Positions 30,730 through 46,913 of a stretch of DNA of 64,000 bases are shown piece after piece. The notes beneath the pieces were generated by a model. The model had not been told where the DNA came from and did not search any database. It saw only the letters and a program-made list of their open reading frames with translations. The stretch is from a virus (Duplodnaviria > Heunggongvirae > Uroviricota > Caudoviricetes), in the IMG/VR virus record IMGVR_UViG_2541047596_000003; one strand, 5' to 3'. Position 1 is the first letter of the stretch; each line of letters opens with the position of its first letter. A program made the translations under genes and the position numbers.

Positions 30730-30745
30730 TGTGATCTGTGTTACA
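30730..30745. promoter_or_regulatory. CRP-like site TGTGATCTGTGTTACA
   Basis: TGTGA-N6-TTACA; overlaps a CCATTTTG motif at 30724-30731. Confidence 0.3.
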
Positions 30746-30881
30746 CTTTGGGCTTATACATAATGTATTTTTTGATCTATATCAACATACGAAATGATAG
30801 CTTCTGCGGTGATTTGCTCATCGGATGGGTGGATCATCACGAACAACAAATGACAGTAAAACAAACAGTAAGGTGAATACA

Positions 30882-31127
30882 ATGAAAAAACTAATTGTTG
30901 CTTGCATCTTATCAGCTCTGTCTTTTGGTGCTTTTGCTTCTGTAAATTCGACAGATAAGAGTGATGCTGGCACTGCTCAATATGGTGATACTGGCCTTGA
31001 TAACCAACGTTCGAGTTATTTCAATACTGACTCATGGAAAGAAAAACAACTACAAGGTAAAATTATTGACAGTGAATGTAATTTACCTATCCATTTTTCT
31101 GGTGTAAATGATGGGTGTAAAAAATAA
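30882..31127 (+). CDS. small secreted protein (antisense moron between J and the tail fibre)
   Basis: ATG 30882 with SD AAGGTGA; signal peptide MKKLIVACILSALSFGAFA; ORF track start 30825. Confidence 0.5.
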   Translation: MKKLIVACILSALSFGAFASVNSTDKSDAGTAQYGDTGLDNQRSSYFNTDSWKEKQLQGKIIDSECNLPIHFSGVNDGCKK

Positions 31128-31140
31128 AAACAATGCATAA

Positions 31141-31170
31141 AAAAAACGGGGCTTATGCCCCGTTTTTTAT
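31141..31170. terminator. bidirectional rho-independent terminator
   Basis: AAAAAA-CGGGGC-TTAT-GCCCCG-TTTTTT between convergent J and the moron. Confidence 0.6.
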
Positions 31171-34100
31171 GCTGTCGTTGATGTTCTAAATGATCCGGTG
31201 CCTCTTGCTACTATCATTGTTGGAGAATACAACGCGGTACAATATGCGTATCCTTCAGATGATGATGTTTGAGGACAATATATTTTCCCGATAATATCTG
31301 ATGCTTTTAAACCAGAAAAAGCGCATTGCACTGTTAATGTGCATCCACCATAAGGCACGTAATATGAAATTGTTTTGTTTTTATCTCCGCAACTAAACGT
31401 TACGTTATAAGTGGATCTATATTCACCAGACATTAATGAAATAGTCGCCATAAGCATAACTGATTTCGTCAATGCATTATCCGTGCTGTCTTTATATGTG
31501 ATGGTTGCGCTATAACTTCCGTTATGCCCAAGCACTCGATCTGGACCAACCCCCATGTTAGCAACGTCACCGACAAATGATTTTGCCTCTACTGTACCTT
31601 TAAACTTCCCGCTTGTGGCCTGAATCTCACCAGTGAATTTACCAGATGTTGCGTACACCGTACCGCGTACAGTGACGTTGTTGAACTCCGCATTGCCGTT
31701 TTTATTTAGCATCCAGCCAGCCGAACCAGCTTTATAGTTGGTTGACTGAATTTGCTGCGCAATCTTCGCGGTAGTGATTGATGCGTCTCTGATCCACGCA
31801 TCACGGATGTAGCAAGCACCGTTAGTAACATAGAACGGGGTCTGATAGGAGCCACCTGCCGCAGTCATAAGCACGAAACGGTCAACGAGGAAAATACACT
31901 GCGATTGAACGTTAGTCCCGCTACCAGTAAGGCCGAGCGACATTCCTGTAGCGTATTTCATACCGTTTTTATCAGTGGCAATCTTAATTGAATATGACGC
32001 ATCAACGTTACCTTTGAAGTCAGTCAGTGCTTTTGATGTCGTTTCTATCGCCGTTGTGTTTCCGTTAATAGTTACTTTCAACTGGTCGATTCTGGTTGAC
32101 AATGCCTCGTCTGCCGTTGCCATAGCCTGTGACCATTCCGTGATGCTTGAGTTTACATCGTCGAAAGATGCCGAGATCTGGCCAAATTTTTCCGCGCTTG
32201 ATGTTTCATGCGTAGAAAGTGCAGTTGACACTTCGGATACTTTCGAATTAATCGTACTGGTAAGCGATGAGTTAAGGCTGCTGATTGCGTCAGTGCGTGC
32301 ATTCTTCTCATCTGCGATCGCTTTATCCATCCTGGTTACGTTGCTTGTCACCTTGCTATCGAGCGTGGAAATTGACGCATTAACCCCGCTAATAGCTTCT
32401 GCGCGTGCGCTCGCCTCATCTGCGATTGCTTTATCAAGACGGGAAACGCTCGCGTCGGTTTTGCTTTCAAGACTACTGACGCTGGCGTTAACGTTGCTAA
32501 TAGCTTCTGCGCGTGCGCTCGCCTCATCTGCGATTGCTGTGTCTACCCTTGCTATTTCCGCTTTTGTTTTTGTTTGTCCTTTCCTGTATTTCGCCTCAAT
32601 AACAGTGCTCATCTTGCTTTGCGCCATTGAGTTATTAATAAGCGCCAGAGATGCGTTTTGCAGACTTGCTTTCGCCTGATCTATCTCGTCGCTGTTTTTA
32701 TCAACCTCACTTTTAACGCCGCCAAGCGTCGCGCTGATACCTGATATCGCCTGAGCACGTGCGCTTGATTCATCAGCGATAGCTTGATCAAGACGGCTAA
32801 CACTGGCATTTGTGTTATTTTCAAGCGTTGTTAAATCAGCTTTAACCACTGTTATTGCGTCGCTTCTTGCCTGCGTTTCATCTGATATTGCATTATCGAG
32901 GCGCTTAACGCTGGCGTCAGTTTTCTTGTCAAGTGTTGAGATACTTGCGTTCACGTCGCTGATAGCCTGAGTACGCGCACTTGTTTCGTCTGCAATTGCC
33001 TGATCAAGACGGTTTACGCTGGCGTCAGTTTTCTTGTCAAGATTGCTTATTGAGGCATTTACACCGTTAATAGCTTCAGCGCGGGCGCTGGCCTCGTCAG
33101 CTACTGCGCGTTGCACATTAGAGATCTGACCTTTAAGGTTTGTGTCCATCACATTCATTTCTGCCGTGATGGTTTCCAGTGATTCCGCTGTCGCTTTTTT
33201 CTCTTCAGCGATAACGTTGTCAATGCGGTCAATTTCCGCTTTCGTCTCTGTCCTGCCTTTCTTGTACTGAGCGGTAAGAGTTACGCGAGTGTTAGTCTGT
33301 GCAAGCGAGTTATTAATAAGAGCAAGTGAGGCGTTTTGCAGACTTGCTTTTGCTTGCGCCAGTTCGCTGCCAACTTTTTCGCTAGACACCTCCAGCGAGT
33401 CGATTCTCGACTCATGCTGTCCAATATCATCGGCGTTTTCCTTAACTTTTTTATAAAGATCTTCCGTTTCTTTTTTGAGCGTATCAGTATCAGCTTTTAT
33501 TGATCCTGTTTCTATGGTTAGGTTGTCAGTTTCAGTCCTTAAATCGTCAGTTATGTTGGTCAGATTATCAGTTGCAGTTTTGAGGTTGTCAGTAGCAGTT
33601 TTAAGGTCATTCGTAGCGCTTTCGATAAGATCAGTGCGGTCGCCTAGATCTTTAATGTCACCAACCATTTCTTTAAATTGTTTGGAATTCATTACGTCTT
33701 TGGTGACGTAATCGGTAATTTCATCAAAGTTTTCTGTTGGCTTACCTGACGCTTCCACAAAGTCAGACACACCAAAAGCGTTACGCGCGCGCACATAAAC
33801 GTAATATGTGTGACCTGTATTCATGCCGCCAAACGTCCACTGATGACCACGCCCGGTATATTGTGCTTTAGTGGTTATTGATGCCGGATCAGTGATCTGC
33901 GTTTCACCTGAGTAATAAAACTCGTAACTGGTATCAGTGGTGAGCGTTGTTCTGCTGATCGGGTAAACTGTAGCCTGGAATACACCGGGAACCCAATTAA
34001 CGCCAACTGGGGCCGCTGGTGCGCCAATAACCAGATCGACAATGCTTTCCGCACCCTTCATGCCCGTGTCATTTCTGCCACGAATGCCTAATGAGTAGTT

Positions 34101-36137
34101 GCCAGCATCAATGCCATAAAAATCATAACTGTAATTCGTGGTTTCGTAGCTTTTAACTACAGCGCCTTCGGCGTTATACACGCGAATCTCAAAGGTCAGG
34201 CGACGCGTTGTCGTCTGTGTTTCCCATGTTGCGCGACATTGAACCGTTTCAGATCCAACGTTTAACACCTTCAGATTTTCAATGTTCGGCACGCGGAAGT
34301 GATTAAGCGTGTCGTTATTGATCTCGAAGATTGCGCCATTATCGACTACGGCCTGCTTATGTGGATCATGCTGTGCGGCCTCGATGGTGTATACGCTGTT
34401 ATTTTCTGTTTCTGCTACACTGGTGATTCGACATAAAACGGGTTTTGCTGCGTTGGTTGATACAGCAAAAACAGTGCCGTTACGAATCCACGCCGGGGCG
34501 GCTGCAAGGGTGATAATGTTCCCGTTAACTCCGATGATCTGGTGTTTTTTAAATTTACCATCGCTATCAAGTAAGCTGATGGTGTCGCCAGCCGCGATAT
34601 ATTCAGAATCAACCTTGTCGACCGTGATCGCTCTGCCATTGTTCGCCACGATGCGACCGCCTAAACGAGCGCCTGCGCGATTATTATCGAGGATCTCGAT
34701 TATATCCCCCGGCGTAAAGTGAATGGCGTCACGGGCCATTTTAAATGTGAATTTTGACGGCTCGCGTTTCGCTGTTTCGATCAGCCATTTACCAGCGCGG
34801 TGCGCTTGCCCGCGTGAAGTGCAACCGAACGCCTCCAACGTGGTTTCGTTATAACCATCACGGGCGATTAGTTTATCATCTGCGACATATTCTTTTGATT
34901 GCTCCCAGCCGTTTTCAGGGTCAGTCCAGGATACGATCACGGCGTTGTAGCATTCTGCGCGTGCGATACTTGAACGAGTAAACGCGCCATCAACGACGTT
35001 TGCATTTGTGATGGTGGCGATTGGATCTTGTGGCGCATCAATCATCACGGTAAGACGTTGTCCGTCCCATAACGCGATACCACGGAACATACCTGCGATG
35101 TTATCCAGTAGGTCGCGGGCGCTCATTTGCTCCGTAATGTAAGCGTTAAGCGTCATGCGAGGTTCAAGGCCACCATAGCCATCATCAACCAACTGATCGC
35201 AGTATTGAGAAAGCACGTACAAAGCGCCATCATCAACATCAATGTAACCAGCATGTCGAGCAAGTCCAAAGCGCTCGTTTTTAACCAGATACCGGAAAAG
35301 CCATGCAGGGTTATTGGTATACGCCTTTTTAAATCCACCAAGCCATAAACCTGAATATGTGCGCGTTTCAGGGTTGTAATTGTCAGGCACATCAACAATC
35401 AGGCCGCGAAGGTGATAGGTGCGGGTAGGCGTATCAGTATACTGATCATGGTCAATTACGGCGCCAGCTACAGCGGTATGAGGATAAGACAGATTATCAT
35501 CTATTATTTCGCTGTAACTACTCCACCGCGTATCATTCCGCAATAGATCGCCGTTGCTGTCTGGTGTTATGCGACGAACGCGAATATCAAACGGTTTTTC
35601 ATCCGGCGCTTTAATGATGTGAGCTTCCAGGTATTCACCGCTTTGTTTACCAGGGCCAATGTGTATGTCTTTAATCAGCGACCACGTAGAAGATGATGAC
35701 GGTTTAACATCAACCATCAACATGACGGATGTATTATATTGATTGCCCTTTTCATCTGACTGAACGAGAGCATCAACACCAAGATTCAACCTGACGCGGG
35801 TAACGTTTGGATCTGAAACAGTCCTGATTATTGGTGTGTCGTGAGTTACCTTTGCGTTGACAATAACGGTTGACTCAATGGCGTTAAAACCATTAATCGG
35901 CGATTGGTCAGCCGTGCCGTTGCGCCAGGCTATACTAATCCCCGGAATTGATGTATTCCCGTTTGCGTCAGTAACAGGAGTGTCATTAAGCATCACGTCA
36001 TTCAATGGCGCTTTCTGGTTTACCGGACCGTATATCGGCCCTTCGCTGAGAATATCTAAAACACGATAAAACTGTTTGTGATACAGGTTATCGTTCAATA
36101 ATGTTGGTGTTTTGGCTTTGCCGCCGCCGCTACTCAT
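31167..36137 (-). CDS. host specificity protein J (central tail fibre), extended 1656-aa form
   Basis: N-terminal ~1100 aa collinear with recalled lambda J (e.g. ...YHLRGLIVDVPDNYNPETRTYSG...GCTSRGQAHRAGKWL...); C-terminal extension with tandem coiled-coil repeats. Confidence 0.9.
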   Translation of the reverse strand: MSSGGGKAKTPTLLNDNLYHKQFYRVLDILSEGPIYGPVNQKAPLNDVMLNDTPVTDANGNTSIPGISIAWRNGTADQSPINGFNAIESTVIVNAKVTHDTPIIRTVSDPNVTRVRLNLGVDALVQSDEKGNQYNTSVMLMVDVKPSSSSTWSLIKDIHIGPGKQSGEYLEAHIIKAPDEKPFDIRVRRITPDSNGDLLRNDTRWSSYSEIIDDNLSYPHTAVAGAVIDHDQYTDTPTRTYHLRGLIVDVPDNYNPETRTYSGLWLGGFKKAYTNNPAWLFRYLVKNERFGLARHAGYIDVDDGALYVLSQYCDQLVDDGYGGLEPRMTLNAYITEQMSARDLLDNIAGMFRGIALWDGQRLTVMIDAPQDPIATITNANVVDGAFTRSSIARAECYNAVIVSWTDPENGWEQSKEYVADDKLIARDGYNETTLEAFGCTSRGQAHRAGKWLIETAKREPSKFTFKMARDAIHFTPGDIIEILDNNRAGARLGGRIVANNGRAITVDKVDSEYIAAGDTISLLDSDGKFKKHQIIGVNGNIITLAAAPAWIRNGTVFAVSTNAAKPVLCRITSVAETENNSVYTIEAAQHDPHKQAVVDNGAIFEINNDTLNHFRVPNIENLKVLNVGSETVQCRATWETQTTTRRLTFEIRVYNAEGAVVKSYETTNYSYDFYGIDAGNYSLGIRGRNDTGMKGAESIVDLVIGAPAAPVGVNWVPGVFQATVYPISRTTLTTDTSYEFYYSGETQITDPASITTKAQYTGRGHQWTFGGMNTGHTYYVYVRARNAFGVSDFVEASGKPTENFDEITDYVTKDVMNSKQFKEMVGDIKDLGDRTDLIESATNDLKTATDNLKTATDNLTNITDDLRTETDNLTIETGSIKADTDTLKKETEDLYKKVKENADDIGQHESRIDSLEVSSEKVGSELAQAKASLQNASLALINNSLAQTNTRVTLTAQYKKGRTETKAEIDRIDNVIAEEKKATAESLETITAEMNVMDTNLKGQISNVQRAVADEASARAEAINGVNASISNLDKKTDASVNRLDQAIADETSARTQAISDVNASISTLDKKTDASVKRLDNAISDETQARSDAITVVKADLTTLENNTNASVSRLDQAIADESSARAQAISGISATLGGVKSEVDKNSDEIDQAKASLQNASLALINNSMAQSKMSTVIEAKYRKGQTKTKAEIARVDTAIADEASARAEAISNVNASVSSLESKTDASVSRLDKAIADEASARAEAISGVNASISTLDSKVTSNVTRMDKAIADEKNARTDAISSLNSSLTSTINSKVSEVSTALSTHETSSAEKFGQISASFDDVNSSITEWSQAMATADEALSTRIDQLKVTINGNTTAIETTSKALTDFKGNVDASYSIKIATDKNGMKYATGMSLGLTGSGTNVQSQCIFLVDRFVLMTAAGGSYQTPFYVTNGACYIRDAWIRDASITTAKIAQQIQSTNYKAGSAGWMLNKNGNAEFNNVTVRGTVYATSGKFTGEIQATSGKFKGTVEAKSFVGDVANMGVGPDRVLGHNGSYSATITYKDSTDNALTKSVMLMATISLMSGEYRSTYNVTFSCGDKNKTISYYVPYGGCTLTVQCAFSGLKASDIIGKIYCPQTSSSEGYAYCTALYSPTMIVARGTGSFRTSTTA

Positions 36138-36150
36138 GGTTTTTCTCCTG

Positions 36151-36681
36151 TTAACTTACAACGTCTAAGGCGTCTCTATTGTTGCTTGTGTCTATGCCTA
36201 ACGATCCGACGTTTGAACCTATTTTCATTTCACCTAATAGTATTGGCACTGGTCTACCCTGGCCCACCTTGTTTTCAATGCTGGTGTAGGTGTTGTTCGT
36301 TATGGTGTTATCTTGTGCGCTTTCTGCCGATGTTTTTATCTTCATGTTGCGGGACATAAAGATTGAGAACGCAACGCTAACCACCGAAACACCAATCAGG
36401 ATCCAGCCTACAACACCAATCCCAGCAATACCGCCTTCAACTACTGGCGCAATAATGACGGTAGTTCCGTCAGGGTATTTACTATTAACCGCTGCCGGGG
36501 CCGTCTTTTCGTTATAATCTTTCCCGGCAATCCGTAACCGCAAAGGTGTATTTAAAAAAGCCTTCTTGAACTCCTGATTCTGCGCGGTCAATAGGCTAAG
36601 TCCTTGTGCTGGCGTATCAACGTTTAAACACACTTTGCCGTAATATCTTCGAAGATTGCCCGTAAATCTAAATTTGAGCAT
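36151..36681 (-). CDS. tail assembly protein I
   Basis: 176 aa between K and J, lambda gene order. Confidence 0.75.
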   Translation of the reverse strand: MLKFRFTGNLRRYYGKVCLNVDTPAQGLSLLTAQNQEFKKAFLNTPLRLRIAGKDYNEKTAPAAVNSKYPDGTTVIIAPVVEGGIAGIGVVGWILIGVSVVSVAFSIFMSRNMKIKTSAESAQDNTITNNTYTSIENKVGQGRPVPILLGEMKIGSNVGSLGIDTSNNRDALDVVS

Positions 36682-37355: not shown

Positions 37356-37357
37356 AA

Positions 37358-38062
37358 TCAACCCACCTTGCTCGATCCTGGGAAACATGAAATTGGTAAC
37401 GGATTCGGGCGCGGGAAACGTAAACGGCAACCGCTCAGGCGGTGGCTGCATTTATCCAGCTTTGGATCGCTGGTCGATTCGTCTTTATCAGTAGCTACAG
37501 GGCCGCCACTGTATCCGCAACCGTCGCCGCGATATTGCCATTGGCAAACGTCAGCAAGGATTGTGCGCCCTGGGATAACCGCCTTGTCAGCATCAATTGG
37601 CGTTGACAGCTCATATTGCACCTGGTCGGCTGTTTCTTCGCTCATCGCCTCAACGACGTAAAAAGACACCGCCTCGATAGACGGATCTGCATCCGGGTTG
37701 CCGTTGGGGAAGTTGATGGCGTCCAGGTATTTTACTTCCACCTGGCGGCGTGTAACTTTCATTCCTCGCAGGTCGTTGAAATCGTTATTCATCCCGGTGA
37801 TTAGGCCGCCAATGTTGGCTACAACCATTTGCGGGCGTGAATAGACACCCTCGTTTTTCATTTCGAAGCCAGTGGCCTCGATAGGGTAGCTGTTGTAAGC
37901 CACCCCCTTCCAGATAACCGGGCCGTAATAGCCATTCACGCCGGAATGGAAGCGGATAACCTCGCCACCCAGGGGCGTGAGGTCTAATTCAAACAAGTCA
38001 ATTACCGCGCCGACTCCGGCATCGACGGAATCAATAATCATTTCTCTCGGAATATTGCGCAT
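37358..38062 (-). CDS. minor tail protein L
   Basis: 234 aa collinear with recalled lambda L (...GVGAVIDLFELDLTPLGGE..., CQWQYRGDGCGYSG). Confidence 0.85.
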   Translation of the reverse strand: MRNIPREMIIDSVDAGVGAVIDLFELDLTPLGGEVIRFHSGVNGYYGPVIWKGVAYNSYPIEATGFEMKNEGVYSRPQMVVANIGGLITGMNNDFNDLRGMKVTRRQVEVKYLDAINFPNGNPDADPSIEAVSFYVVEAMSEETADQVQYELSTPIDADKAVIPGRTILADVCQWQYRGDGCGYSGGPVATDKDESTSDPKLDKCSHRLSGCRLRFPRPNPLPISCFPGSSKVG

Positions 38063-38080
38063 TTTCTCACCTTGTCATTC

Positions 38081-38096
38081 TGTGATCTGCGTCACG
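38081..38096. promoter_or_regulatory. CRP-like site TGTGATCTGCGTCACG
   Basis: TGTGA-N6-TCACg centred ~63 bp upstream of the predicted start of the adjacent moron promoter. Confidence 0.35.
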
Positions 38097-38116
38097 CTAA
38101 ATCATACCAAAATGGA

Positions 38117-38145
38117 TTGATCGCGGTTTTTACAATATGTATATT
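38117..38145 (+). promoter_or_regulatory. candidate sigma70 promoter of moron cassette 1
   Basis: TTGATC-17 bp-TATATT, preceded by CAAAATGG at 38108-38115. Confidence 0.4.
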
Positions 38146-38191
38146 TTACTCAAACGGAAGCATAGTTAACAAAATGGCGCGGAGGTGCGTT

Positions 38192-38380
38192 ATGACTGAA
38201 AAGCTATGGAAGTTGACGGTATTCATGACAGACGGTAGGGAAAAGGTTATCGCCCTGTATGACGACGAGGGTGAAGCATTGGTTGACGCGCTTTTACTTG
38301 CTGAGGATGACCGCCTTTTGGGATACCAGATCGAACCTGTCAAATATGAGGCTAACAAAAATGAAAAAATACAGTCTTGA
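38192..38380 (+). CDS. hypothetical small protein (moron cassette 1, paralogue a)
   Basis: 62 aa MTEKLWKLTVFMTDGREKVIALYDDEGEALVDALLLAEDDRLLGYQIEPVKYEAN... with SD GGAGG. Confidence 0.4.
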   Translation: MTEKLWKLTVFMTDGREKVIALYDDEGEALVDALLLAEDDRLLGYQIEPVKYEANKNEKIQS

Positions 38381-38708
38381 TGTGTGGTTAAGTGGTAGCA
38401 AGGAGTGTTTCGGATTATTTGATAGCGAAGAAGTAGCCCTGGAAGAAGGCAGGATTCTTGAATGTAGTTTAGGCCATCCAGTGAAATATGCTGCTAATCC
38501 GGTACAGATAGTTGATGAGGTGGAAGATATGAACCCGAAAGATATTAATGGTAGCTTCACTGCTTATTATGCAGATTCTATGGACCAGTCTTGCCCTGGT
38601 GAAATACACGCAAAAGGTTTCCCGGCTGACGATCCAGAAGCAAAACGCGAATACGAAAAAGCGGCGAAAGATTTCTGTATCGATAACCTTTCAGCATTCG
38701 ATAAATAA
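38361..38708 (+). CDS. hypothetical protein (moron cassette 1, paralogue b)
   Basis: 115 aa; N-terminal 45 aa share the L.V....G...L.D.E..AL.....LG....KY.AN pattern with the upstream ORF. Confidence 0.4.
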   Translation: MKKYSLDVWLSGSKECFGLFDSEEVALEEGRILECSLGHPVKYAANPVQIVDEVEDMNPKDINGSFTAYYADSMDQSCPGEIHAKGFPADDPEAKREYEKAAKDFCIDNLSAFDK

Positions 38709-38717
38709 GGCGGCAAC

Positions 38718-38966
38718 ATGGGGCGGCGCAATCACGGTGATTATGTGTACACGTTGAAACAGGCCGCCCGCCTCATCGGTTATCATGAACACGAATTTAT
38801 TGATTTGCTGATTGAGCGCGGGATACTGTACCAGGTCTGTTTAACGCTGTACCCGAAAGCGAAATACCTACATGAAAAGTTATTCATCATCATGACGGAT
38901 GAAAACCAGGTTAACCATTCATTCGTCACTGATAAGGGCGTTAATTATCTGCGTGATAACTTATAG
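38718..38966 (+). CDS. hypothetical small protein with possible HTH (moron cassette 1)
   Basis: 82 aa; YTLKQAARLIGYHEHEFIDLLIERGIL is helix-turn-helix-like. Confidence 0.4.
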   Translation: MGRRNHGDYVYTLKQAARLIGYHEHEFIDLLIERGILYQVCLTLYPKAKYLHEKLFIIMTDENQVNHSFVTDKGVNYLRDNL

Positions 38967-39091
38967 GTGACTGATTATAAAAATAGAAGTTTTGGCGCTA
39001 ATAATAATGGGGTTGATAGTATTTGGCGTTCATGCTGTAGATCTGGACTGGAAAACGATAGCAGAAAATATAGCATTAATGGAAATAGAAT

Positions 39092-39125
39092 AAAAATAAC
39101 CCCGCTTCGCGCGGGGTCGTGTTTA
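39092..39125. terminator. bidirectional rho-independent terminator
   Basis: CCCCGC-TTCGC-GCGGGG between the + moron cassette and the minus 65-aa ORF; U-rich flank on the minus transcript. Confidence 0.55.
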
Positions 39126-39320
39126 TACGCCATCAACCAAAAATAAAACCTCCTTCCCTTCCCGGGATCTACACCCAACGTACCCATCACCAACGTCGTG
39201 AAGATACCATATATCGCCGTTGTCAGCTTTTACAGTAAGGTCGTTGATCTCATAGTCGTCAAACAATGTAAAAGCGTAAGTTTTGTCAACTACACAAGTC
39301 CCGTACATAACAACCCCCAT
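39123..39320 (-). CDS. hypothetical small protein downstream of M
   Basis: 65 aa, start coupled to the M stop. Confidence 0.4.
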   Translation of the reverse strand: MGVVMYGTCVVDKTYAFTLFDDYEINDLTVKADNGDIWYLHDVGDGYVGCRSREGKEVLFLVDGV

Positions 39321-39673
39321 TAGCCAACAACTTGCTCAAACGTTGCGTTTAGCGTGTACAAAGGCCCGTCTTTAGTCATGCTCCATTGCCGACAGACAAA
39401 AAGCCTTTGCACGTTATCCATTGACGGCGACCAGTAAAAAGCCTCGACCGCGCCGCGCGCCCTCAAGAATGCTTCCGCCTGGATTGCTACGTTTCCACCA
39501 TCACCACATCCGGCGCTACTGCCTTTAAACACCAGGGTGTAGCTATCAAGCAATGGATTGATACCTTTTACCTGTCTTTGCTCATAACCATCGCCCAGCT
39601 TAACAACAGATACGTCTGGCTTCCTGGTCACGCTGTAGCTTCTTTGCGGCGTCCATCTGAACACTTCCGGCAT
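39320..39673 (-). CDS. minor tail protein M
   Basis: 117 aa; ...KLGDGYEQR... and C-terminal FEQVV as in recalled lambda M. Confidence 0.8.
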   Translation of the reverse strand: MPEVFRWTPQRSYSVTRKPDVSVVKLGDGYEQRQVKGINPLLDSYTLVFKGSSAGCGDGGNVAIQAEAFLRARGAVEAFYWSPSMDNVQRLFVCRQWSMTKDGPLYTLNATFEQVVG

Positions 39674-39732
39674 AAAACCCCCACAAGTTACATTTTGTAT
39701 ATATCTTTACGCGCTTCTACGCGAAAAATAAG

Positions 39733-39749
39733 ATCATTGTCACAATGAT
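39733..39749. promoter_or_regulatory. 17-bp perfect palindrome (operator-like)
   Basis: ATCATTGT-C-ACAATGAT upstream of the moron cassette 2 promoter. Confidence 0.3.
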
Positions 39750-39771
39750 TATAGCTAGTTTACAAAATGGC

Positions 39772-39800
39772 TTCACATAGCACGCAACAAGATGTATATA
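39772..39800 (+). promoter_or_regulatory. candidate sigma70 promoter of moron cassette 2
   Basis: TTCACA-17 bp-TATATA preceded by CAAAATGG at 39763-39770. Confidence 0.4.
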
Positions 39801-39840
39801 GAAAGCAAGAAGAAAGTAGTACCAACGAAGGAGGCCCAAA

Positions 39841-39996
39841 ATGAAACGCTATGTAGTAGTAATGCTAAATAACGCATTCGAACAAGTGGAAATAGCAATC
39901 GTTAAGGGTTTCGACGACGCATTCAAATACGGTCAATTCATGATGAATGCGAAAGAAGATGAATACCGGGACTTCTTCCTGAAGGCACTTAACTAA
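39841..39996 (+). CDS. hypothetical small protein (51 aa, moron cassette 2)
   Basis: MKRYVVVMLNNAFEQVEIAIVKGFDDAFKYGQFMMNAKEDEYRDFFLKALN with strong SD GAAGGAGG. Confidence 0.4.
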   Translation: MKRYVVVMLNNAFEQVEIAIVKGFDDAFKYGQFMMNAKEDEYRDFFLKALN

Positions 39997-40013
39997 GGAT
40001 GATGGGGTGAGTT

Positions 40014-40268
40014 ATGAAACTGGTAGCGATTGACAGAAATCTGAAAGCACAGAAAAACGCACAGGACCGGATCATCAAGAAAGGTAAGGAATTACTTAAA
40101 GCCTTTCTGAGAAAAGAAGTTTACCCCAAAAAGTTACGCGACGGTTACGGATACAAAATGGATATCAATCTTGATTGGAGGCTGTTTAGCGAAGATTTGA
40201 AGGTTTGGTTAATTGTTGAGCACCATGCCTATAACAAGTTATGTGGCGTGAAAGGCACTCATAAGTGA
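40014..40268 (+). CDS. hypothetical basic protein (84 aa, moron cassette 2)
   Basis: ORF-track ORF with SD GGGGTGAG. Confidence 0.45.
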   Translation: MKLVAIDRNLKAQKNAQDRIIKKGKELLKAFLRKEVYPKKLRDGYGYKMDINLDWRLFSEDLKVWLIVEHHAYNKLCGVKGTHK

Positions 40269-40321
40269 GTCGAGATATTCGAAAGGGGATATATCGCGCG
40301 GAATGGTCGTTTATAAATACG

Positions 40322-40360
40322 AAAAATAACCCCGGCATTGCACCGGGGTTTAGTTTATTT
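40322..40360. terminator. bidirectional rho-independent terminator
   Basis: CCCCGG-CATTGCA-CCGGGG with T-rich tail; overlaps the tape-measure stop. Confidence 0.5.
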
Positions 40361-42697
40361 GCGGCGAGGTTGCAACATTCCGCCTGGTCTTTGAGATTCC
40401 CTTGTTATCATTTTCATGGCTACACGTTCCATTGTTAATTCAAGTCTGCGGCTGTCTTCGTCGCTGAATCCGTTCGTGGTCTGAATGCTGATACTGACAG
40501 GCATACTAATACCGCCACCGCCGCCAATATCACGGCCCGGAATAACTCTGCCGTTCTCGCCAGGGATCATATATTGATTGCCGTTAGATGTCTGGAATAG
40601 CTCCGGCCTGTTGTGTTCCCCTACGCGGTACATATTACCACCAATGACGCTACCACCATTAAAGCGACCGCCGCCGAAAATTGACGTAGCCAGCGACATG
40701 ATCGCAGTGAGCGCCGCCGAACCAGCCGCCGCCCAGCTACCGCCAGTTGACGCCGCAGTTGCCGCCGCTGCTGGGGCCGCCGCCGCAGCAATGCTTCCCT
40801 GAGCTGCTACCGCGCTTGCTGTTGTACTTGTTTGCGTGGCCTTGCTTTGTGTCTCCATCATGATCTGATCTGCTATCCAGTTTGCAGCTATGTCTGAGAG
40901 TCTGTTACCGATATTGCCGAGTATATTGCTTCCTAAGTTAGCAAAAACATCACTCAATGATTGAGTGCCGTTTAACAGGCCAACAAGTGCATTGCTCATA
41001 CCACCTTTAAGGCCATTAACGCAATCACCGATAAGGCTGTTTGTGTCGCTTTGCGCCTGCCATTGCTCCCACTTCAGATCGCGGATCTGTTGCTCATAGG
41101 CTAACAGTTCCTGTTTCTGTTGCGCTTCCGTCACGCCCAGGTCGATAAGCATTTGCTTACGGACGGCCCATTCATTTTGAACCTGCTGAATAGGGTCTAC
41201 TTCGCCCTTTAGCTGATCCATCGGGCTTACTATTTGCTCCCATTTGTCGCGCAATTCCTCTACCGGAATTTGTGCTAATTCTTCCTTTAGTTCCTTACCT
41301 ATCCCTTTTTGCGCGGCGCGGTACTCAAGGAGAGTGATTTTACCCTGGGCGAATGCAGCATCAATGGCCTTGCCGCTCTCTAACGCTTTGCGCATAGCGG
41401 CGGCGTCTTTGTTGTACTGGTCAGAAACGCTTATACCTTTATCGCCAAGACGATCAGCTTCAGATTTCTTCTCTTTTTTCTGTTTTTTCGGTTTGTCTAC
41501 TGGCTTGTCGAATCCGGTAATCGCTCCGTCATTGGCGGCATTCTGTTCATTTTTCCTTGCTTCTTCTGTAGCCTGGATTGCTGCGGTCAGATCATCCTGT
41601 AGTTGCATGACCTTGCCAACGGTCTTACCGTATTTCTTCTCGTAGTTGCTGTTATATTCGTCGGTTTGCTCTCCTACGACCTCCTTCATCCATTTGTAGG
41701 CATCCATTAGTGCCTTGATTGGCGTCACCATTGCGATGATCTTCTCGGCTACCTCGCCAGCCTTGATTCTGACATCTTCAAACATGTCGATGAATTCGCC
41801 ACCAGCCGTCTTCAGGGTGTTAAAGCAGGTTTTAGCGAAATCAGCGCCTTCACCTAAAGCCTTAACACCTTTCGTTACAAGATCGATACCAGCAACAACC
41901 GTATCGGATACACCGAAAAGATCATCCAATTGCTCAATAAGTCCCATAACCTCGACTTTAAGCTCATTCAGGGCCATGCCGGATGTGCGCGGCAACTGCG
42001 CAAACTTCTCGTTTGTTTCCTGCGTAGCCGCCTGGATTGCGTTAACCATCCTTTCTGCCGTGATCTTACCGTCCAGCATTTCGGCGCGGAATTGGCCCAT
42101 TGATAACCCCATCTGGCGTGCCATTGTCTGTACGATGGTCGGGGTGTTTTCTAACAGGCTGTTGAATTCTTCAGCACGCAACACGCCACCGTCGATAGAC
42201 TGACGGAATTGACGCATTGAGTTTGACATCTGCTCCGCTGACGCGCCGCCCAACGCCCCCATTTTCTGAATCGTACCTACCAGGTTAAGCAATTGCCCTT
42301 CAGTGGCGGACGTGTTCTTCAGTGAGATAGCTAAGCCTTGCCACAGATCCCCGGTATCCTTCATGCTTTGGCCTGTTTCTTTTGATATTGCTTTCAGGCC
42401 ATCAAAAACCCGTCCGGCGGACTCCGCATCGCCCGTAAGCATTTTGATTTTTACGCGAAGCATTTTTGCTTGCTCCGCCATATCCATAAATTGACGCACG
42501 GCCTCCGCAGCAATTAGCAAATGGATAACCCTGGTCAGTGCCTTGATGGATGTTTTCAGGGTGTTTACCTGGCGGTCAGCCTGTTTTGCGCCGCGCTCTA
42601 TACGCCCAAAGGCCTGGTCTGCCTGTCGTTGTGCAACGAGAAGTTGACCAGTTTTCGCATCAACTTCGTAATAAATTGTACCTACACTGGTAGCCAT
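40355..42697 (-). CDS. tail length tape measure protein
   Basis: 780 aa, long helical protein with Ala/Gly-rich C-terminus, upstream of M. Confidence 0.85.
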   Translation of the reverse strand: MATSVGTIYYEVDAKTGQLLVAQRQADQAFGRIERGAKQADRQVNTLKTSIKALTRVIHLLIAAEAVRQFMDMAEQAKMLRVKIKMLTGDAESAGRVFDGLKAISKETGQSMKDTGDLWQGLAISLKNTSATEGQLLNLVGTIQKMGALGGASAEQMSNSMRQFRQSIDGGVLRAEEFNSLLENTPTIVQTMARQMGLSMGQFRAEMLDGKITAERMVNAIQAATQETNEKFAQLPRTSGMALNELKVEVMGLIEQLDDLFGVSDTVVAGIDLVTKGVKALGEGADFAKTCFNTLKTAGGEFIDMFEDVRIKAGEVAEKIIAMVTPIKALMDAYKWMKEVVGEQTDEYNSNYEKKYGKTVGKVMQLQDDLTAAIQATEEARKNEQNAANDGAITGFDKPVDKPKKQKKEKKSEADRLGDKGISVSDQYNKDAAAMRKALESGKAIDAAFAQGKITLLEYRAAQKGIGKELKEELAQIPVEELRDKWEQIVSPMDQLKGEVDPIQQVQNEWAVRKQMLIDLGVTEAQQKQELLAYEQQIRDLKWEQWQAQSDTNSLIGDCVNGLKGGMSNALVGLLNGTQSLSDVFANLGSNILGNIGNRLSDIAANWIADQIMMETQSKATQTSTTASAVAAQGSIAAAAAPAAAATAASTGGSWAAAGSAALTAIMSLATSIFGGGRFNGGSVIGGNMYRVGEHNRPELFQTSNGNQYMIPGENGRVIPGRDIGGGGGISMPVSISIQTTNGFSDEDSRRLELTMERVAMKMITRESQRPGGMLQPRRK

Positions 42698-42717
42698 GAT
42701 TTAACCTCATGCAAAAA

Positions 42718-42733
42718 TGTGATCTGTGTATCT
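42718..42733. promoter_or_regulatory. CRP-like half-site element TGTGATCTGTG
   Basis: Same 11-mer as at 30730; centred ~60 bp upstream of the predicted start of the cassette 3 promoter. Confidence 0.3.
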
Positions 42734-42750
42734 ATTTTATACAAAATGGC

Positions 42751-42779
42751 TTTACTTCAACGACTCCATTTTGTATAAA
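42751..42779 (+). promoter_or_regulatory. candidate sigma70 promoter of moron cassette 3
   Basis: TTTACT-17 bp-TATAAA; CAAAATGG at 42742-42749 and inverted copy at 42766-42773. Confidence 0.4.
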
Positions 42780-42824
42780 GAAGCCAAAGGGAATGGTCAG
42801 TAAATCAAGTTAGCGTGGTGGGTT

Positions 42825-43484
42825 ATGAAACGGTTAGCAAAAGTGGCAATGATTGCGGCGGTATTGGGTCTGGTTGGTTGCAATGAGGATAATGAAAAAG
42901 CGCCTATAGTGACCACTCAAGAACAACAAGCATTAGCAGAGAAAAATGCTAAATGGCTTGCAGAACAACAAGCAAAACAAGCCGCATATGAGGCACAGTT
43001 AGCAAAAGAAAAAGCTGGTAAACAGTGGCTTGTGGTCGAAAGAAAAGATGATATGCAGGACACAAAAAACGTGTTCCTTTTCGTGAAAGCAGAACATTTC
43101 AGCGGAAGTCTTGATGCTTTCCCTACACTGAAAGCACGGGATGAAAACAAACCTGTATTAACAATCGCTTGCCAGGGTAATAAAACAAAAATGTTCGTAG
43201 CATGGTCAAACCATGTAACTGACGCTGGGGACACTACTTATATTAACTACCGGATCGGCGATCACAAAGCTGTAGCTACTGAATGGAGTCGGTCAACTAA
43301 CTATAAAGCTCTTGGATTATGGAACGGCAAAAAAGCCATTCCAATGATTAAAAAACTGGTTAACGAAAAACAATTTATCATTGAAGTAGTGCCGGAAGCT
43401 GGCGACATTGAGAAAGCAGTGTTTAACATTGATGGTCTTTATAACCACATCGACAAAGTGAAAAACGCTTGCAACTGGAATTAA
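42825..43484 (+). CDS. lipoprotein (moron cassette 3)
   Basis: 219 aa; signal peptide MKRLAKVAMIAAVLGLVGC with lipobox; coiled-coil-like N-terminal region. Confidence 0.6.
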   Translation: MKRLAKVAMIAAVLGLVGCNEDNEKAPIVTTQEQQALAEKNAKWLAEQQAKQAAYEAQLAKEKAGKQWLVVERKDDMQDTKNVFLFVKAEHFSGSLDAFPTLKARDENKPVLTIACQGNKTKMFVAWSNHVTDAGDTTYINYRIGDHKAVATEWSRSTNYKALGLWNGKKAIPMIKKLVNEKQFIIEVVPEAGDIEKAVFNIDGLYNHIDKVKNACNWN

Positions 43485-43493
43485 GGGTGAAAC

Positions 43494-43814
43494 ATGAAAC
43501 GCGATGAATGGATGAGAAAATGGGAACATAAACAAGTAGCATATAATCGCAAGATGAACCGCGAATTTGACTTCGGTGTCGCAGAGCGTGATTGTGGGTA
43601 TAAAGGAAATCTAAATGGTGCATATGTTCAACATGTTGGCGATAAACAGTATTATTACATTGTCAACTTCAACCATGTATTGCACGCAGATCTGGTTGTT
43701 ATTGATGGGAAAACAAAAATAGTAGCGAATAAACGCATTAATAAGAACGCAGCAATCAATATATTAACAGTGATTCGCACCCAGATGAATGTGCTTTACG
43801 AAAAAATAGCATAA
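43494..43814 (+). CDS. hypothetical protein (moron cassette 3)
   Basis: 106 aa with SD AAGGGTGA, 10 bp after the lipoprotein gene. Confidence 0.5.
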   Translation: MKRDEWMRKWEHKQVAYNRKMNREFDFGVAERDCGYKGNLNGAYVQHVGDKQYYYIVNFNHVLHADLVVIDGKTKIVANKRINKNAAINILTVIRTQMNVLYEKIA

Positions 43815-43831
43815 GCGAACTTAACAAAAAC

Positions 43832-43855
43832 GCCCGGATCTACCGGGCTTTTTCT
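43832..43855. terminator. rho-independent terminator of moron cassette 3
   Basis: GCCCGG-ATCTAC-CCGGGC followed by TTTTT. Confidence 0.6.
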
Positions 43856-46884: not shown

Positions 46885-46913
46885 CGCGCCGGGGAGTTAC
46901 AGGAAATACGAAA

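Follow-up and report, generated by a model that had tools for sequence, protein, structure and literature searches.

Four conserved slots for antisense gene cassettes, with a reused predicted promoter design and bidirectional terminators, in the tail operon of an mEp021-like prophage

In phage phi80, the constitutively expressed defence gene taiEcA opposes the Q-dependent late operon, and its expression falls when Q is expressed (PMC11364771), an arrangement known as a 'noncontiguous operon'. The first moron, gp15 of HK97, occupies the junction of the tail chaperone and tape measure genes (PMC3594210). Within the mEpimmI phage family, described in PMC11893012, the lipoproteins Lpp021 and Lpp010, which relatives of the present prophage carry in what we call slot 1, were shown experimentally to exclude superinfecting phages; the antisense arrangement of the slots is not mentioned in that paper. 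Here we describe four such slots in a window of 64,000 nucleotides, the whole stretch of DNA that was analysed. The slots match known morons and noncontiguous operons and are not a new kind of element, the arrangement predicted from their sequence being the same as that of taiEcA. In this prophage four such units occur, kept by the whole phage family and reusing one predicted promoter design.

The prophage is 99.7% identical to a prophage of E. coli M1/5 and shares 84-88% nucleotide identity with mEp021, MagusPhagus and mEp010/013/044/515/554; 35 of 5426 complete E. coli genomes contain matches to it. On sequence identity it is assigned to the mEpimmI (mEp021-like) group of E. coli siphophages. 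An earlier note on this DNA had placed the tail genes on the minus strand and the cassette genes on the plus strand, and the ORF list and PGAP agree with it, coordinates included. The tail genes are as follows.

28888-30684, minus: stf, side tail fibre (ORF; PGAP 'phage head spike fiber domain-containing protein')
31167-36137, minus: J, tail tip (ORF)
36151-36681, minus: I, tail tip (ORF)
36624-37355, minus: K, tail tip (ORF; NlpC/P60 and JAB domains)
37358-38062, minus: L, tail tip (ORF)
39123-39320, minus: gp70-like ORF of 65 aa (mEp021_70 homologue; phrog_3249)
39320-39673, minus: M (PF05939)
40355-42697, minus: tape measure (ORF, PGAP)
43840-44526, minus: DUF6246 protein (PF19759, E 7.5e-54)

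The final late gene ahead of the prophage end is stf. The last gene of the list had been called a chaperone; gene and strand stand, while the functional name follows from position only and the domain is DUF6246. The gp70-like ORF, whose start overlaps the stop of M, carries no PGAP annotation, and its dN/dS is about 0.07 in most comparisons.

The four slots lie at stf/J, L/gp70-M, M/tape measure and tape measure/DUF6246, and hold eight annotated plus-strand genes and a ninth, small unannotated ORF. Plus-strand cassettes at four junctions had been claimed before, and all eight genes are indeed annotated by PGAP/RefSeq in the near-identical M1/5 prophage; for the L/M cassette the three genes named earlier are there, but the gp70-like gene between this cassette and M and a fourth ORF (38992-39093) had been missed.

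30882-31127, plus: C1, 81-aa exported protein (ORF; PGAP; weak phrog_2243 match)
38192-38380, plus: C2a, 62-aa small protein (phrog_29559)
38361-38708, plus: C2b, 115 aa (phrog_38567; 20-nt overlap with C2a)
38718-38966, plus: C2c, 82 aa, a KilAC domain alone (PF03374, E 1.1e-6, over the gathering cut-off)
38992-39093, plus: C2d, unannotated hydrophobic ORF of 28-33 aa, between C2c and the terminator
39841-39996, plus: C3a, 51 aa, putative C3b partner/antitoxin (phrog_29810; strong RBS)
40014-40268, plus: C3b, 84-aa basic protein with a ParE-like toxin domain (PF24732, E 9e-12)
42825-43484, plus: C4a, 219-aa lipoprotein (lipobox LVGC; PF11319 (VasI/TagO), E 1.7e-16; phrog_1848)
43494-43814, plus: C4b, 106-aa cytoplasmic orphan (ORF; no family match)

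The same four sites are used in all 56 related phages examined, and slots 2, 3 and 4, the three that can be reliably bounded, were never empty in 56 loci, with sizes of 1009-1695 bp (S2), 684-2078 bp (S3) and 646-1278 bp (S4). The GC content of the slots is 39.8% versus 47.6% for the tail genes, a moron-like composition. The comparison with relatives that the earlier note had proposed for finding variable cassettes separates two classes: slots 1 and 4 are exchangeable, with several unrelated alternative cargoes that all carry signal peptides or lipoboxes, and in slots 2 and 3 the cargo is common to the family and evolves under purifying selection. The view of the cassettes as insertions must thus be amended for cassettes 2 and 3, which are fixed family-wide genes and not recent insertions. 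PADLOC assigned no cargo protein to a defence family.

In slot 1, the protein predicted earlier to be secreted does have a type I signal peptide, which ends AFA|SV; its mature part contains two Cys, there is no usably placed lipobox, and the protein is taken to be periplasmic. C1 occurs in 15 of 43 family loci and shows no similarity to the Lpp/Cor lipoproteins, being a non-lipoprotein unrelated to the experimentally tested exclusion proteins. Slot 4 carries, as was claimed, a lipoprotein, C4a, identified by its lipobox; it also matches TIGR03360 below the cut-off, and is present in 19 of 51 loci. Its neighbour C4b is found in 7 of 51, with homologues in only three clusters, all from E. coli. 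Most likely, the cargo of slots 1 and 4 acts at the envelope in superinfection exclusion, though the features of C1 just named count against this.

The cargo of slots 2 and 3 is cytoplasmic. The paralogy proposed for the first two proteins of slot 2 is borne out, as C2a resembles the N-terminal domain of C2b (BLASTP E 7e-5; hhalign probability 61.5%, E 7.8e-5); this domain of C2b is variable, and its C-terminal domain is highly conserved. C2a is present in 51 of 53 loci (dN/dS mostly 0.1-0.6), and C2b in 53 of 53 (0.19-0.32); with the two genes taken together, most comparisons give about 0.2-0.6. The third protein, formerly described as HTH-like, is a real gene, but its domain is KilAC, the antirepressor C-terminal domain; it is found in 53/53 loci at 92-100% identity (dN/dS 0.03-0.36). 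C2d shows a dN/dS of 0.10-0.35, relatives have longer annotated versions, and a C2d-related cluster occurs in at least 29 loci. Of the two small proteins noted for slot 3, the second contains a ParE-like toxin domain and the first, encoded upstream, is its partner. C3b, in 54 of 55 loci (dN/dS 0.06-0.10), scores 45 bits against PF24732, for which the cut-off is 24.4, and all of its distant relatives match this family too; its AlphaFold2 model is poor (pLDDT 53), with no fold match. C3a, in 53 of 55 loci, has a dN/dS of 0.01-0.04, homologues confined to the mEp021-like phage family, and an AlphaFold2 model of a single helix (pLDDT 82); it is a member of no known antitoxin family. From these sequences, C3a and C3b would most likely form an addiction or defence pair of the toxin-antitoxin type. 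Against such a pair count its basis in one Pfam match, and the conservation of C3a, which exceeds that of the toxin, contrary to what is usual in toxin-antitoxin systems.

Each cassette is predicted to have its own promoter. The predicted module consists of a CRP-like site at class I/II distance, the 9-mer (A)CAAAATGG, a -35 element, a 17-bp spacer and a TGTATAWW -10 element.

30730-30771, plus: slot 1 module; CRP-like TGTGATCTGTGTTACA (30730-30745), -10-like TGTATTTT (30764-30771)
38081-38145, plus: slot 2 module; CRP-like TGTGATCTGCGTCACG (38081-38096), CAAAATGG (38108-38115)
38117-38145, plus: slot 2 core promoter; -35 TTGATC (38117-38122), -10 TATATT (38140-38145)
39729-39800, plus: slot 3 module; CRP-like TAAGATCATTGTCACA (39729-39744), CAAAATGG (39763-39770)
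39772-39800, plus: slot 3 core promoter; -35 TTCACA (39772-39777), -10 TATATA (39795-39800)
42718-42779, plus: slot 4 module; CRP-like left half-site TGTGATCT (from 42718), palindrome TATACAAAATGG-N16-CCATTTTGTATA
42751-42779, plus: slot 4 core promoter; -35 TTTACT (42751-42756), -10 TATAAA (42774-42779)
59380-59457, minus: fifth module copy; perfect CRP palindrome TGTGATCTGTATCACA, slot 4 spacing

The three core promoters had been proposed before, and their positions and 17-bp spacers are correct, but only the first passes a generic scan. As promoter-like sites are not enriched across the region (26 versus 31.8 +/- 5.3 in shuffles), support for the candidates comes from conservation and not from count: together with the hairpins, they are the best-conserved non-coding positions (32-47 distinct family sequences). 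The -35, -10, 9-mer and half-sites are nearly invariant and the spacers vary. Non-coding K is 0.02-0.28 in the slot 2 module, where flanking dS is 0.3-1.1, and mostly 0.07-0.19 in the 5' modules of slots 2 and 3 taken together, against 0.3-1.2. For stf/J, where no convincing promoter could be placed previously, we now propose the slot 1 candidate listed above; it lacks the 9-mer, which elsewhere sits just upstream of the -35, and is kept in relatives despite their differing downstream cargo. The slot 4 module is likewise kept in all relatives, with any cargo. The fifth copy reads in the sense of its neighbours, upstream of a 92-aa ORF (59360-59082).

The half-sites of the slot 2 CRP-like site are 94-100% invariant and its centre 44-69% (16 variants); slot 3 has TGAGA-N6-TCACA in most relatives, with TGAGA or TAAGA as left half, and the right half-site of slot 4 is xCTCT, not TCACA. 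The 12-mer TGTGATCT corresponds to the left half-site of the standard CRP consensus, AAATGTGATCTAGATCACATTT. There are six matches to TGTGATCTGYGT at one mismatch or fewer versus 0.53 expected, the three exact ones lying in slots 1, 2 and 4; CAAAATGG has 13 versus 4.7 expected, 6 of the 13 in slot promoter regions; and the module regex matches S2, S3 and S4 only, versus 0.06 expected. CRP-pattern matches are not enriched window-wide (3 versus 2.26 at one mismatch or fewer). In the approximately 620 nt of slot 5' regions there are three at two mismatches or fewer versus about 0.24 expected from the window-wide match rate (Poisson p ~0.002). From the centre of the CRP-like site to the -10, the distances in the five modules are 28.5, 48.5, 48.5, 51.5 and 58.5 nt, the first, that of slot 1, being class II-like. 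On this basis, cAMP-CRP probably modulates the slot promoters.

All four terminator hairpins described earlier are present, and all of them fold.

31141-31170, no strand assigned: slot 1 terminator, overlapping the J stop codon; kept in relatives carrying C1
39098-39118, no strand assigned: slot 2 terminator, in 47/53 loci, loops variable
40328-40350, no strand assigned: slot 3 terminator, 5 nt from the tape-measure stop codon; in 51/55 loci
43832-43848, no strand assigned: slot 4 terminator, in 50/51 loci; compensatory change GCCAGGT/ACCTGGC
63617-64000, minus: Q-type late antiterminator, 3' half, cut by the window end (PF03589, E 7.4e-22)

The region is enriched in terminator-like sites (32 versus 19.8 +/- 5.0 in shuffles), and the flanking tracts, A upstream and T downstream, give each of the four hairpins a bidirectional form. 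For the slot 1 hairpin the folding energies are -23.7 and -24.4 kcal/mol, with z-scores of -5.7 and -6.9, and that of slot 4 has z-scores of -4.5 and -4.8; those of slots 2 and 3 are weaker. The slot 2 hairpin is inverted in mEp021, and slot 3 shows alternative stems with compensatory changes. The Q-type gene is 76% identical to mEp021_37, 'late gene regulator Q' (tblastn), and its position upstream on the late strand makes the suggested late read-through of the terminators plausible.

We consider it likely that the four fixed slots are autonomous, insulated transcription units that face against the late operon, and every part of the earlier interpretation that can be tested in silico is supported. 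Each unit would comprise a conserved sigma-70 promoter module, with its CRP-like site at about -41, -61 or -71, cargo genes, and one bidirectional intrinsic terminator immediately following the upstream tail gene. As long as the late operon is off, in the lysogen, each slot would depend on its own promoter, with probable modulation by cAMP-CRP, and the terminator would keep cassette transcripts from running antisense into the tail genes, as well as halt any stray transcription of the late strand. Once the prophage is induced, Q-modified RNA polymerase would pass all four hairpins and cross the cassettes. Since the tail operon is silent in a lysogen, the convergent transcription that had been expected there would be confined to the time after induction; and given that the arrangement is that of taiEcA, late transcription should lower cassette expression. 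What was observed in silico is the anatomy, the coding constraint, the conserved modules and hairpins, the exchange of cargo and a Q gene; that the promoters are active and depend on CRP, that late transcription reads through the terminators and silences the cassettes, and what each cargo does, we infer from there.

Could the plus-strand ORFs be chance frames in the non-coding DNA that separates the tail genes? A number of them have no more than 51-84 aa, Pfam has no family for C1, C2b, C3a and C4b, and the match of C2a is weak and sub-threshold. Yet the cassette ORFs show a dN/dS well under 1 even where dS reaches 1-2, a conservation as coding sequence that the earlier note had made decisive and which refutes the chance reading; three Pfam matches exceed their gathering cut-offs, PHROG families exist, the genes have ribosome-binding sites and are called by PGAP and phage annotators, and an ORF scan found no long minus-strand ORF spanning the slots, so that chance frames are next to impossible. 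A different question is whether slots 2 and 3 carry ordinary genes of the lytic cycle or of lysogeny establishment, on the opposite strand by happenstance and needed by the phage, for instance soon after it infects, and not lysogen-expressed morons or a toxin-antitoxin pair. Their presence in 51-54 of 53-55 members under purifying selection as strong as that on tail proteins is uncommon among accessory genes, the slot 3 pair has homologues almost exclusively in the mEp021-like family, and C3a differs from usual antitoxins in its conservation relative to C3b. Their sigma-70-type promoters, however, share the design of the exchangeable slots, their GC lies below that of the backbone, C3b has the ParE-like domain, and phi80 holds a constitutive defence gene in the same arrangement, all of which makes us regard ordinary phage genes as unlikely.

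As for the modules, the shared motifs (TGTGATCT, CAAAATGG and the slot 4 palindrome) may be operators of a phage regulator instead of CRP sites and UP-like elements, the five modules then forming a phage-controlled regulon under C2c or a CI-like or Cro-like protein. The copies of the 12-mer and 9-mer resemble one another beyond what a CRP consensus would by itself demand, and a 14-bp inverted repeat lies in the modules of slot 4 and of 59.4 kb. Slot 4 also keeps a right half-site that differs from TCACA, and C2c, a probable DNA-binding domain, is conserved as are the modules. Still, operators seem doubtful: the 12-mer is itself half a CRP consensus, invariance in slot 2 falls exactly on TGTGA and TCAC with the 6-bp centre free, and the distances to the -10 are within 1-2 bp of class II and class I CRP positions. 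A reading that we hold to be quite improbable makes the tail region a chain of separate late units and not one read-through operon, in which the hairpins primarily end tail-gene segments, a late-strand promoter or phage-activator site in each divergent region restarts the tail genes, and the plus-strand genes fill gaps. It would account for the slot 2 and 3 hairpins having their better T-tract on the tail (minus) strand and not on the cassette strand, for each hairpin directly following a tail gene, for conserved 5' modules abutting the start codons of L, tape measure, M and stf, and for the palindromic slot 4 module, the regex matching both strands. Insulated units read through with the help of Q fit better with other observations, a Q-type antiterminator upstream on the same strand being the standard way past such terminators. 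On the minus strand no convincing -35/-10 pair is conserved (in slot 4 the -35 would be GTCGTT), and in slots 2 and 4 only 26-28 nt separate the CRP-like site from the ATG of the tail gene, which leaves too little room for activation of a promoter of that gene. Finally, the fifth module copy would drive a sense-strand ORF outside the tail region.

The prophage spans 28.3-64 kb of the window and carries nearly all of its genes on the minus strand. Between 37300 and 44600 it matches the E. coli M1/5 chromosome (NZ_CP053296.1) with 100% identity. Across 23 kb the window and M1/5 differ by 58 substitutions, most of which lie in the host flank; the window thus stems from a different strain that carries the same prophage, adjoining zntB/ynaN. 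Related copies are present in 35 of 5426 complete E. coli genomes, and the closest isolated phages are mEp021, MagusPhagus and mEp010/013/044/515/554, at 84-88% nucleotide identity. Together these isolates make up the mEpimmI group, Nus-dependent, non-lambdoid coliphages that a 2025 paper set apart as a new group at family level and that are reported to be as common as lambdoid phages in human faeces (PMC11893012). For comparison we used 56 loci, comprising 10 annotated relatives and 46 IMG/VR contigs, window included. Far outside the prophage, a second lysozyme homologue (4442-4843, minus strand; 66% identity to the mEp021 lysozyme) suggests another prophage or a remnant in the left part of the window.

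An earlier note, made from the sequence alone, had described four antisense cassettes within the tail operon, each with its own promoter and hairpin terminator. This observation is confirmed and its interpretation supported, both with corrections. An ORF check places the tail genes on the minus strand and recovers the eight plus-strand genes that the note had located; PGAP annotates all eight in M1/5. The proposed promoter hexamers and hairpins were found in their places as well. We refer to these plus-strand units as slots 1 to 4, at the stf/J, L/gp70-M, M/tape measure and tape measure/DUF6246 protein junctions, and to their cargo as C1 (slot 1), C2a to C2d (slot 2), C3a and C3b (slot 3), and C4a and C4b (slot 4). 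At the second junction the plus-strand genes stand as described, but the boundary is not that of L and M, since a 65-aa ORF on the late strand makes it L/gp70. The corrected annotation thus gains two unannotated small genes:

39123-39320, minus strand: gp70-like ORF of 65 aa, its ATG overlapping the stop codon of M; homologue of mEp021_70; phrog_3249
38992-39093, plus strand: C2d, a hydrophobic protein of 28-33 aa, MALIIMGLIVFGVHAVDLDWKTIAENIALMEIE, between the KilAC gene and the slot 2 terminator; unannotated

The gp70-like ORF is annotated in mEp021 (gp70) and MagusPhagus and was missed by PGAP in M1/5; its dN/dS is ~0.07 in most comparisons. It is a late operon member at the edge of slot 2. 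Longer versions of C2d are annotated in some relatives. The slots have a GC content of 39.8%, compared with 47.6% for the tail genes. Terminator-like sites are enriched in the region (32 versus 19.8 +/- 5.0 expected), and promoter-like sites are not (26 versus 31.8 in shuffles).

The plus-strand ORFs are conserved as coding sequence in the relatives, so that the refuting outcome named in the earlier note, a lack of such conservation, is rejected, and their dN/dS values rule out that they are spurious:

dN/dS of slot genes and tail proteins (Nei-Gojobori, window genes versus relatives)
C3a: 0.01-0.04, with dS up to 2
C3b: 0.06-0.10
C2c: 0.03-0.36
C2b: 0.19-0.32
C2a: 0.12-0.61, and one value of 1.29 at very low divergence
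C2d: 0.10-0.35
Tail proteins L, M and I: 0.03-0.10

Wherever a locus includes a junction, the slot at that junction is occupied (56 loci; three reliably bounded slots), with lengths of 1009-1695 bp for slot 2 (n=53), 684-2078 bp for slot 3 (n=55) and 646-1278 bp for slot 4 (n=51). When relatives are compared for variability, the slots fall into two kinds: the cargo of slots 2 and 3 is constant, and that of slots 1 and 4 is exchangeable. Slot 2 holds C2b and C2c in all 53 loci and C2a in 51 of them, while slot 3 holds C3b in 54/55 and C3a in 53/55; in both, optional extra genes are sometimes added downstream. As such, the 'core genome' of the family includes reverse-strand genes within the tail module. 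In slot 1, the alternatives are unrelated to one another: a Cor-like lipoprotein (21 loci), C1 (15), an 82-aa lipoprotein (13) and a DUF6453 protein (4). Likewise unrelated are the first genes of slot 4, which encode a VasI-like lipoprotein (19 loci) or a secreted protein of either 139 aa (19) or 119 aa (6); the second genes are various, C4b being found in only 7 loci. A signal peptide or lipobox is present in all inspected small slot 1 genes (70-82 aa) and slot 4 first genes, a set to which the DUF6453 gene does not belong. This replacement of cargo among relatives points to insertion and exchange at slots 1 and 4. Unrelated slot 4 proteins (those of loci L002, L009 and L010, and the one starting at 42825 in the window) start alike, with MKRLAK... 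or MKSLAK.... From these common N-terminal residues, the recombination boundary seems to lie inside the signal-peptide coding region and not upstream of the start codon.

What precedes the cargo is better conserved than its surroundings. For the 5' non-coding sequences of slots 2 and 3, K is mostly 0.07-0.19, with a single outlier of 0.28 in slot 2, compared with a dS of 0.3-1.2 for the flanking genes of the same phages, and in slots 1 and 4 the first ~90 nt are conserved even with a different gene behind them. Near-invariant are the CRP-like half-sites, the 9-mer CAAAATGG, the -35 and the TGTATAWW -10, with spacers that vary (32-47 distinct sequences); together these elements make up the predicted slot promoter, or module. 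Candidate -35 and -10 elements separated by 17 bp lie upstream of the units, which in silico gives them predicted promoters of their own, as morons have. Anchored on the -10, the slot 2, 3 and 4 modules can be aligned to one another. Furthermore, the 12-mer TGTGATCTGYGT is exact in slots 1, 2 and 4 and has 6 matches at <=1 mismatch versus 0.53 expected, and CAAAATGG has 13 matches versus 4.7 expected, 6 of the 13 being in slot promoter regions. A regular expression for the module, run over the 64 kb, matches slots 2, 3 and 4 only (0.06 expected). In a pattern scan of IMG/VR, the module was found in family members only, and the matches elsewhere were generic TTGAC-N17-TGTATAAT promoters. A fifth copy lies outside the tail operon:

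59457-59380, minus strand: fifth module copy, with the perfect palindrome TGTGATCTGTATCACA, spacing as in slot 4, and sense orientation with its neighbours

Lying between Q and the lysis genes, this copy precedes an acidic ORF of 92 aa (59082-59360, minus strand) that matched no family; a plus-strand hairpin is located nearby at 58910-58929. Two further features concern the module. That of slot 4 (42736-42779) contains a near-perfect palindrome, TTTATACAAAATGG-N16-CCATTTTGTATAAA, which could be an operator for a dimeric protein or a divergent promoter towards the tape measure gene. At 61009-61024, within a run of small minus-strand ORFs, there is a near-copy of the 12-mer (TGTGACCTGCGT on the minus strand), which may be a further site or a chance occurrence.

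Could the module respond to CRP? Its element TGTGATCT corresponds to the left half-site in the consensus for E. coli CRP, AAATGTGATCTAGATCACATTT. Compared with TGTGA-N6-TCACA, slots 1 and 2 have 1 mismatch each, slot 3 has 2 and the 59.4-kb copy has none; slot 4 has the left half only, its right half reading xCTCT. Among the 16 distinct variants of slot 2, TGTGAT is kept in 100% and TCAC in 94-100%, and positions 8-11 in only 44-69%. Such invariant halves around a variable centre are the signature of a protein that binds two half-sites. From the site centre to the first base of the -10 the distance is 28.5 nt in slot 1, 51.5 in slot 2, 58.5 in slot 3, and 48.5 in both slot 4 and the fifth copy, which, with transcription starts assumed, is near the distances for sites at -41.5, -61.5 and -71.5 (29.5, 49.5 and 59.5 expected). 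The 9-mer CAAAATGG would then be at about -46 to -38, the stretch that contains the proximal UP-element subsite. Window-wide, matches to the CRP pattern are not above chance (3 versus 2.26 expected). However, within the ~620 nt of slot 5' regions there are 3 matches at <=2 mismatches versus ~0.24 expected from the window-wide rate, which argues for non-random placement.

At their other end, the units are closed by four conserved, GC-rich hairpins with T-tracts, in line with the factor-independent terminators of morons. All four have an A-tract before and a T-tract after the stem, and are thus terminator-like on both strands. A generic scan misses the hairpin of slot 1, perhaps owing to A-T pairs that extend its stem into the T-tract. 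A hairpin closes slot 2 in 47/53 loci, slot 3 in 51/55 and slot 4 in 50/51, with loops that vary and stems that are kept, including compensatory pairs (GCCCGGT/ACCGGGC to GCCAGGT/ACCTGGC, and AAGGCCGCT/AGCGGCCTT to AAGGCCACT/AGTGGCCTT). Different hairpins can also replace each other at slot ends. The slot 2 hairpin is inverted in mEp021, and it also ends slot 1 in MagusPhagus. Since each slot has a single hairpin, directly after the upstream tail gene, it is expected to stop both the cassette transcript and an unmodified transcript of the late strand. Q-type antitermination is the standard route through intrinsic terminators in a late operon. In mEp021 a gene is annotated as 'late gene regulator Q'; its homologue in the window ends at 63617 and, over the part that the window covers, is a match to PF03589 (E 7.4e-22), and a terminator precedes the holin gene. 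By orientation and position, the opposite-facing genes interrupt the tail operon, and from the Q gene upstream we infer that the genes flanking them are co-transcribed. Q-modified late transcription would thus read through the slot hairpins. An Rfam scan of 28-47 kb (E <= 1) returned nothing in the slots; its sole match, to Hrs1 at 46868-46923 and below threshold (27.9 bits, gathering score 56.4), coincides with a strong terminator hairpin at 46875-46895 after the major capsid gene and is almost certainly due to chance.

Among the cargo proteins, C2a and the N-terminal domain of C2b are paralogues, and C2c consists of a KilAC domain alone (PF03374). The lipoprotein C4a contains a VasI domain (PF11319, E 1.7e-16). 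It scores 47 bits against the TIGR03360 equivalog, far below the cut-off of 124, meaning that it has a domain in common with VasI/TagO and is not the equivalog; near C4a we found no T6SS genes. C4b is an orphan. C1, a small exported protein, has a signal peptide of type I but lacks a lipobox in a usable place; in BLASTP against Cor, Lpp021 and Lpp010, nothing past the signal peptide matched. C3b matches the ParE-like toxin domain PF24732 at 45.3 bits (cut-off 24.4). A C3b profile searched against 1.84 billion representatives found 10 relatives, all tested ones of which also match PF24732, and their motif VGD-YRLL ... W-LL-H-YN is similar to RelE/ParE. The same profile run over one genome per species gave a single match, inside an unrelated 205-aa ORF, which we judged spurious; the cargo family does not appear to extend beyond these E. 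coli phages. For C3b, AlphaFold2 gave a poor model (pLDDT 53), whose secondary structure (a helix at 2-32, three strands and a helix at 70-76) is compatible with the toxin fold of two N-terminal helices and a 3-4-stranded sheet; Foldseek against the PDB gave no meaningful match. Sequence searches of the PDB with C3b, C4a and C2c gave no match, and PADLOC assigned none of the cargo proteins to a defence family.

The arrangement of slot 3 recalls ParDE and RelBE: a small acidic-to-neutral gene, C3a, is followed 17 nt later, in the same orientation, by the 84-aa basic PF24732 protein C3b, both behind one predicted promoter. Unlike in those systems, however, the upstream C3a lacks any known antitoxin domain, its conservation exceeds that of the putative toxin, and the family is tiny. 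C3a is confined to the mEpimmI family and belongs to no known antitoxin class; it has no Pfam or NCBIfam match, its sole PHROG match is phrog_29810, to which no function is assigned, and its AlphaFold2 prediction is an uninformative single helix. That C3a and C3b form a toxin-antitoxin pair is therefore, as read from their sequences, plausible but weak. Two related ideas were rejected. One took the palindrome ATCATTGTCACAATGAT, which lies upstream of slot 3, for a toxin-antitoxin operator, but relatives keep only TCACA of it. The other made C3a a further paralogue besides C2a and C2b (BLASTP E 7.9, hhalign probability 0.1%).

As a whole, the slots are best compared with the morons of lambdoid phages, which Juhala et al. 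reportedly described in 2000 (HK97 gp15, lambda bor and lom; review in PMC3594210). They are moron-like in being extra genes between conserved late genes, with a predicted promoter of their own, an intrinsic terminator and a deviating GC content, and as with morons, envelope cargo is linked to superinfection exclusion. In lambda, H-M-L and G/T-H are contiguous, so that the M/L and tape measure/M junctions are unoccupied. The first moron, HK97 gp15, lies between the tail chaperone and the tape measure (PMC3594210), which is the exact position of slot 4, and slot 1 has the lom/cor position beside J. Unlike lambdoid morons, the slots place four units in one tail operon, all facing against it, and have a common promoter design; the three reliably bounded ones are never empty in the family, and slots 2 and 3 are universal in mEpimmI phages where morons are sporadic. 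Accessory and defence hotspots such as those of P2 and P4 are a feature of temperate phages and their satellites. Slots 1 and 4 resemble these in their fixed positions, conserved backbone boundaries and unrelated cargo that replaces each other, but their boundaries are the promoter module on one side and the terminator on the other, so that the slot itself supplies the expression signals. PMC11364771 cites 'hotspots of immunity' and, as a noncontiguous operon, the immunity genes of S. aureus prophages (Rostol et al. 2024).

Phage phi80 offers a further parallel, in that its taiEcA/atiEcA noncontiguous operon has a reverse-facing gene within a Q-dependent late operon, as the slots do. The noncontiguous operon was reportedly defined by Saenz-Lahoya in 2019. 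In phi80, taiEcA is a constitutive defence gene opposite to the late operon; it is crossed by late transcription, and is lowered when Q is expressed (PMC11364771). In that case, one gene with a known counter-defence partner lies upstream of the packaging module, whereas here the tail module contains four multi-gene units and a bidirectional terminator closes each of them. For slot 1, Lpp021 (mEp021 gp81) and Lpp010 were shown to exclude superinfecting phages (PMC11893012). C1 has the same locus, orientation and upstream module and a similar size, and relatives carry Cor-like or other lipoproteins there; unlike Lpp and Cor, it has a type I signal peptide, no usable lipobox and no similarity to types A, C or Cor. 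No lipoprotein at all was found in 8/48 genomes of the same study (PMC11893012), and C1 is probably among these. Neither morons nor antisense orientation, promoters or CRP are mentioned in that paper. Public annotation already contains the genes, and the concept has been published; in the literature searched, four units in one tail operon, their family-wide fixation, the two constant cargos and the module with its fifth copy were not described. Searches by protein accession returned no papers, a search for a lysogen transcriptome from the family gave none, and none of the prophages in the LF82 prophage transcriptome preprint match.

The mEpimmI phages may carry an 'expression socket', a CRP-controlled promoter design plus a bidirectional terminator, in at least five copies of which four run against the tail operon; that all of these parts hold jointly we consider rather unlikely. 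In such a scheme, two sockets would take exchangeable envelope cargo, two would hold universal cytoplasmic genes of the lysogeny-to-lysis logic of the phage, and Q-driven late transcription across the sockets would shut them off. With this shut-off, the ParE-like toxin might be released from its partner, or a function mediated by KilAC might cease. The gp70-like ORF, on the late strand beside slot 2, might serve as a counter-factor, as atiEcA does in phi80. If the main predictions for the four slots hold, the tail region would be a natural system for a late operon that tolerates four head-on units, each insulated by one bidirectional terminator. With its reused module, it would also be a case in which prophage accessory genes are under nutrient-sensing (cAMP-CRP) control, and it would offer two cargo-exchange sites to mine for exclusion and envelope proteins, including the VasI-like lipoprotein and several orphans. 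In gut E. coli, add-on genes of prophages affect host range, resistance to phages and fitness. Our findings extend known concepts without a new principle. Among the parts worth an experiment are the role of the universal genes of slots 2 and 3, and the putative CRP control of the reusable promoter modules.

Two observations concern other genes of the late region. The gene in the portal position of loci L004-L010 (e.g. L004 22782-24152; ~50561-51955 in the window) is named 'anti-CBASS protein Acb1 family protein' by PGAP, DUF1073 in one relative and portal protein in the mEp021 record; the Acb1 name is probably a quirk of annotation transfer. In some relatives, the tail and head modules also carry HNH endonuclease genes (L002 7124-7690; L009 12653-13135 and 22761-23252), one of them inside slot 3 and one between I and J, which makes them a second kind of mobile insert in the region.
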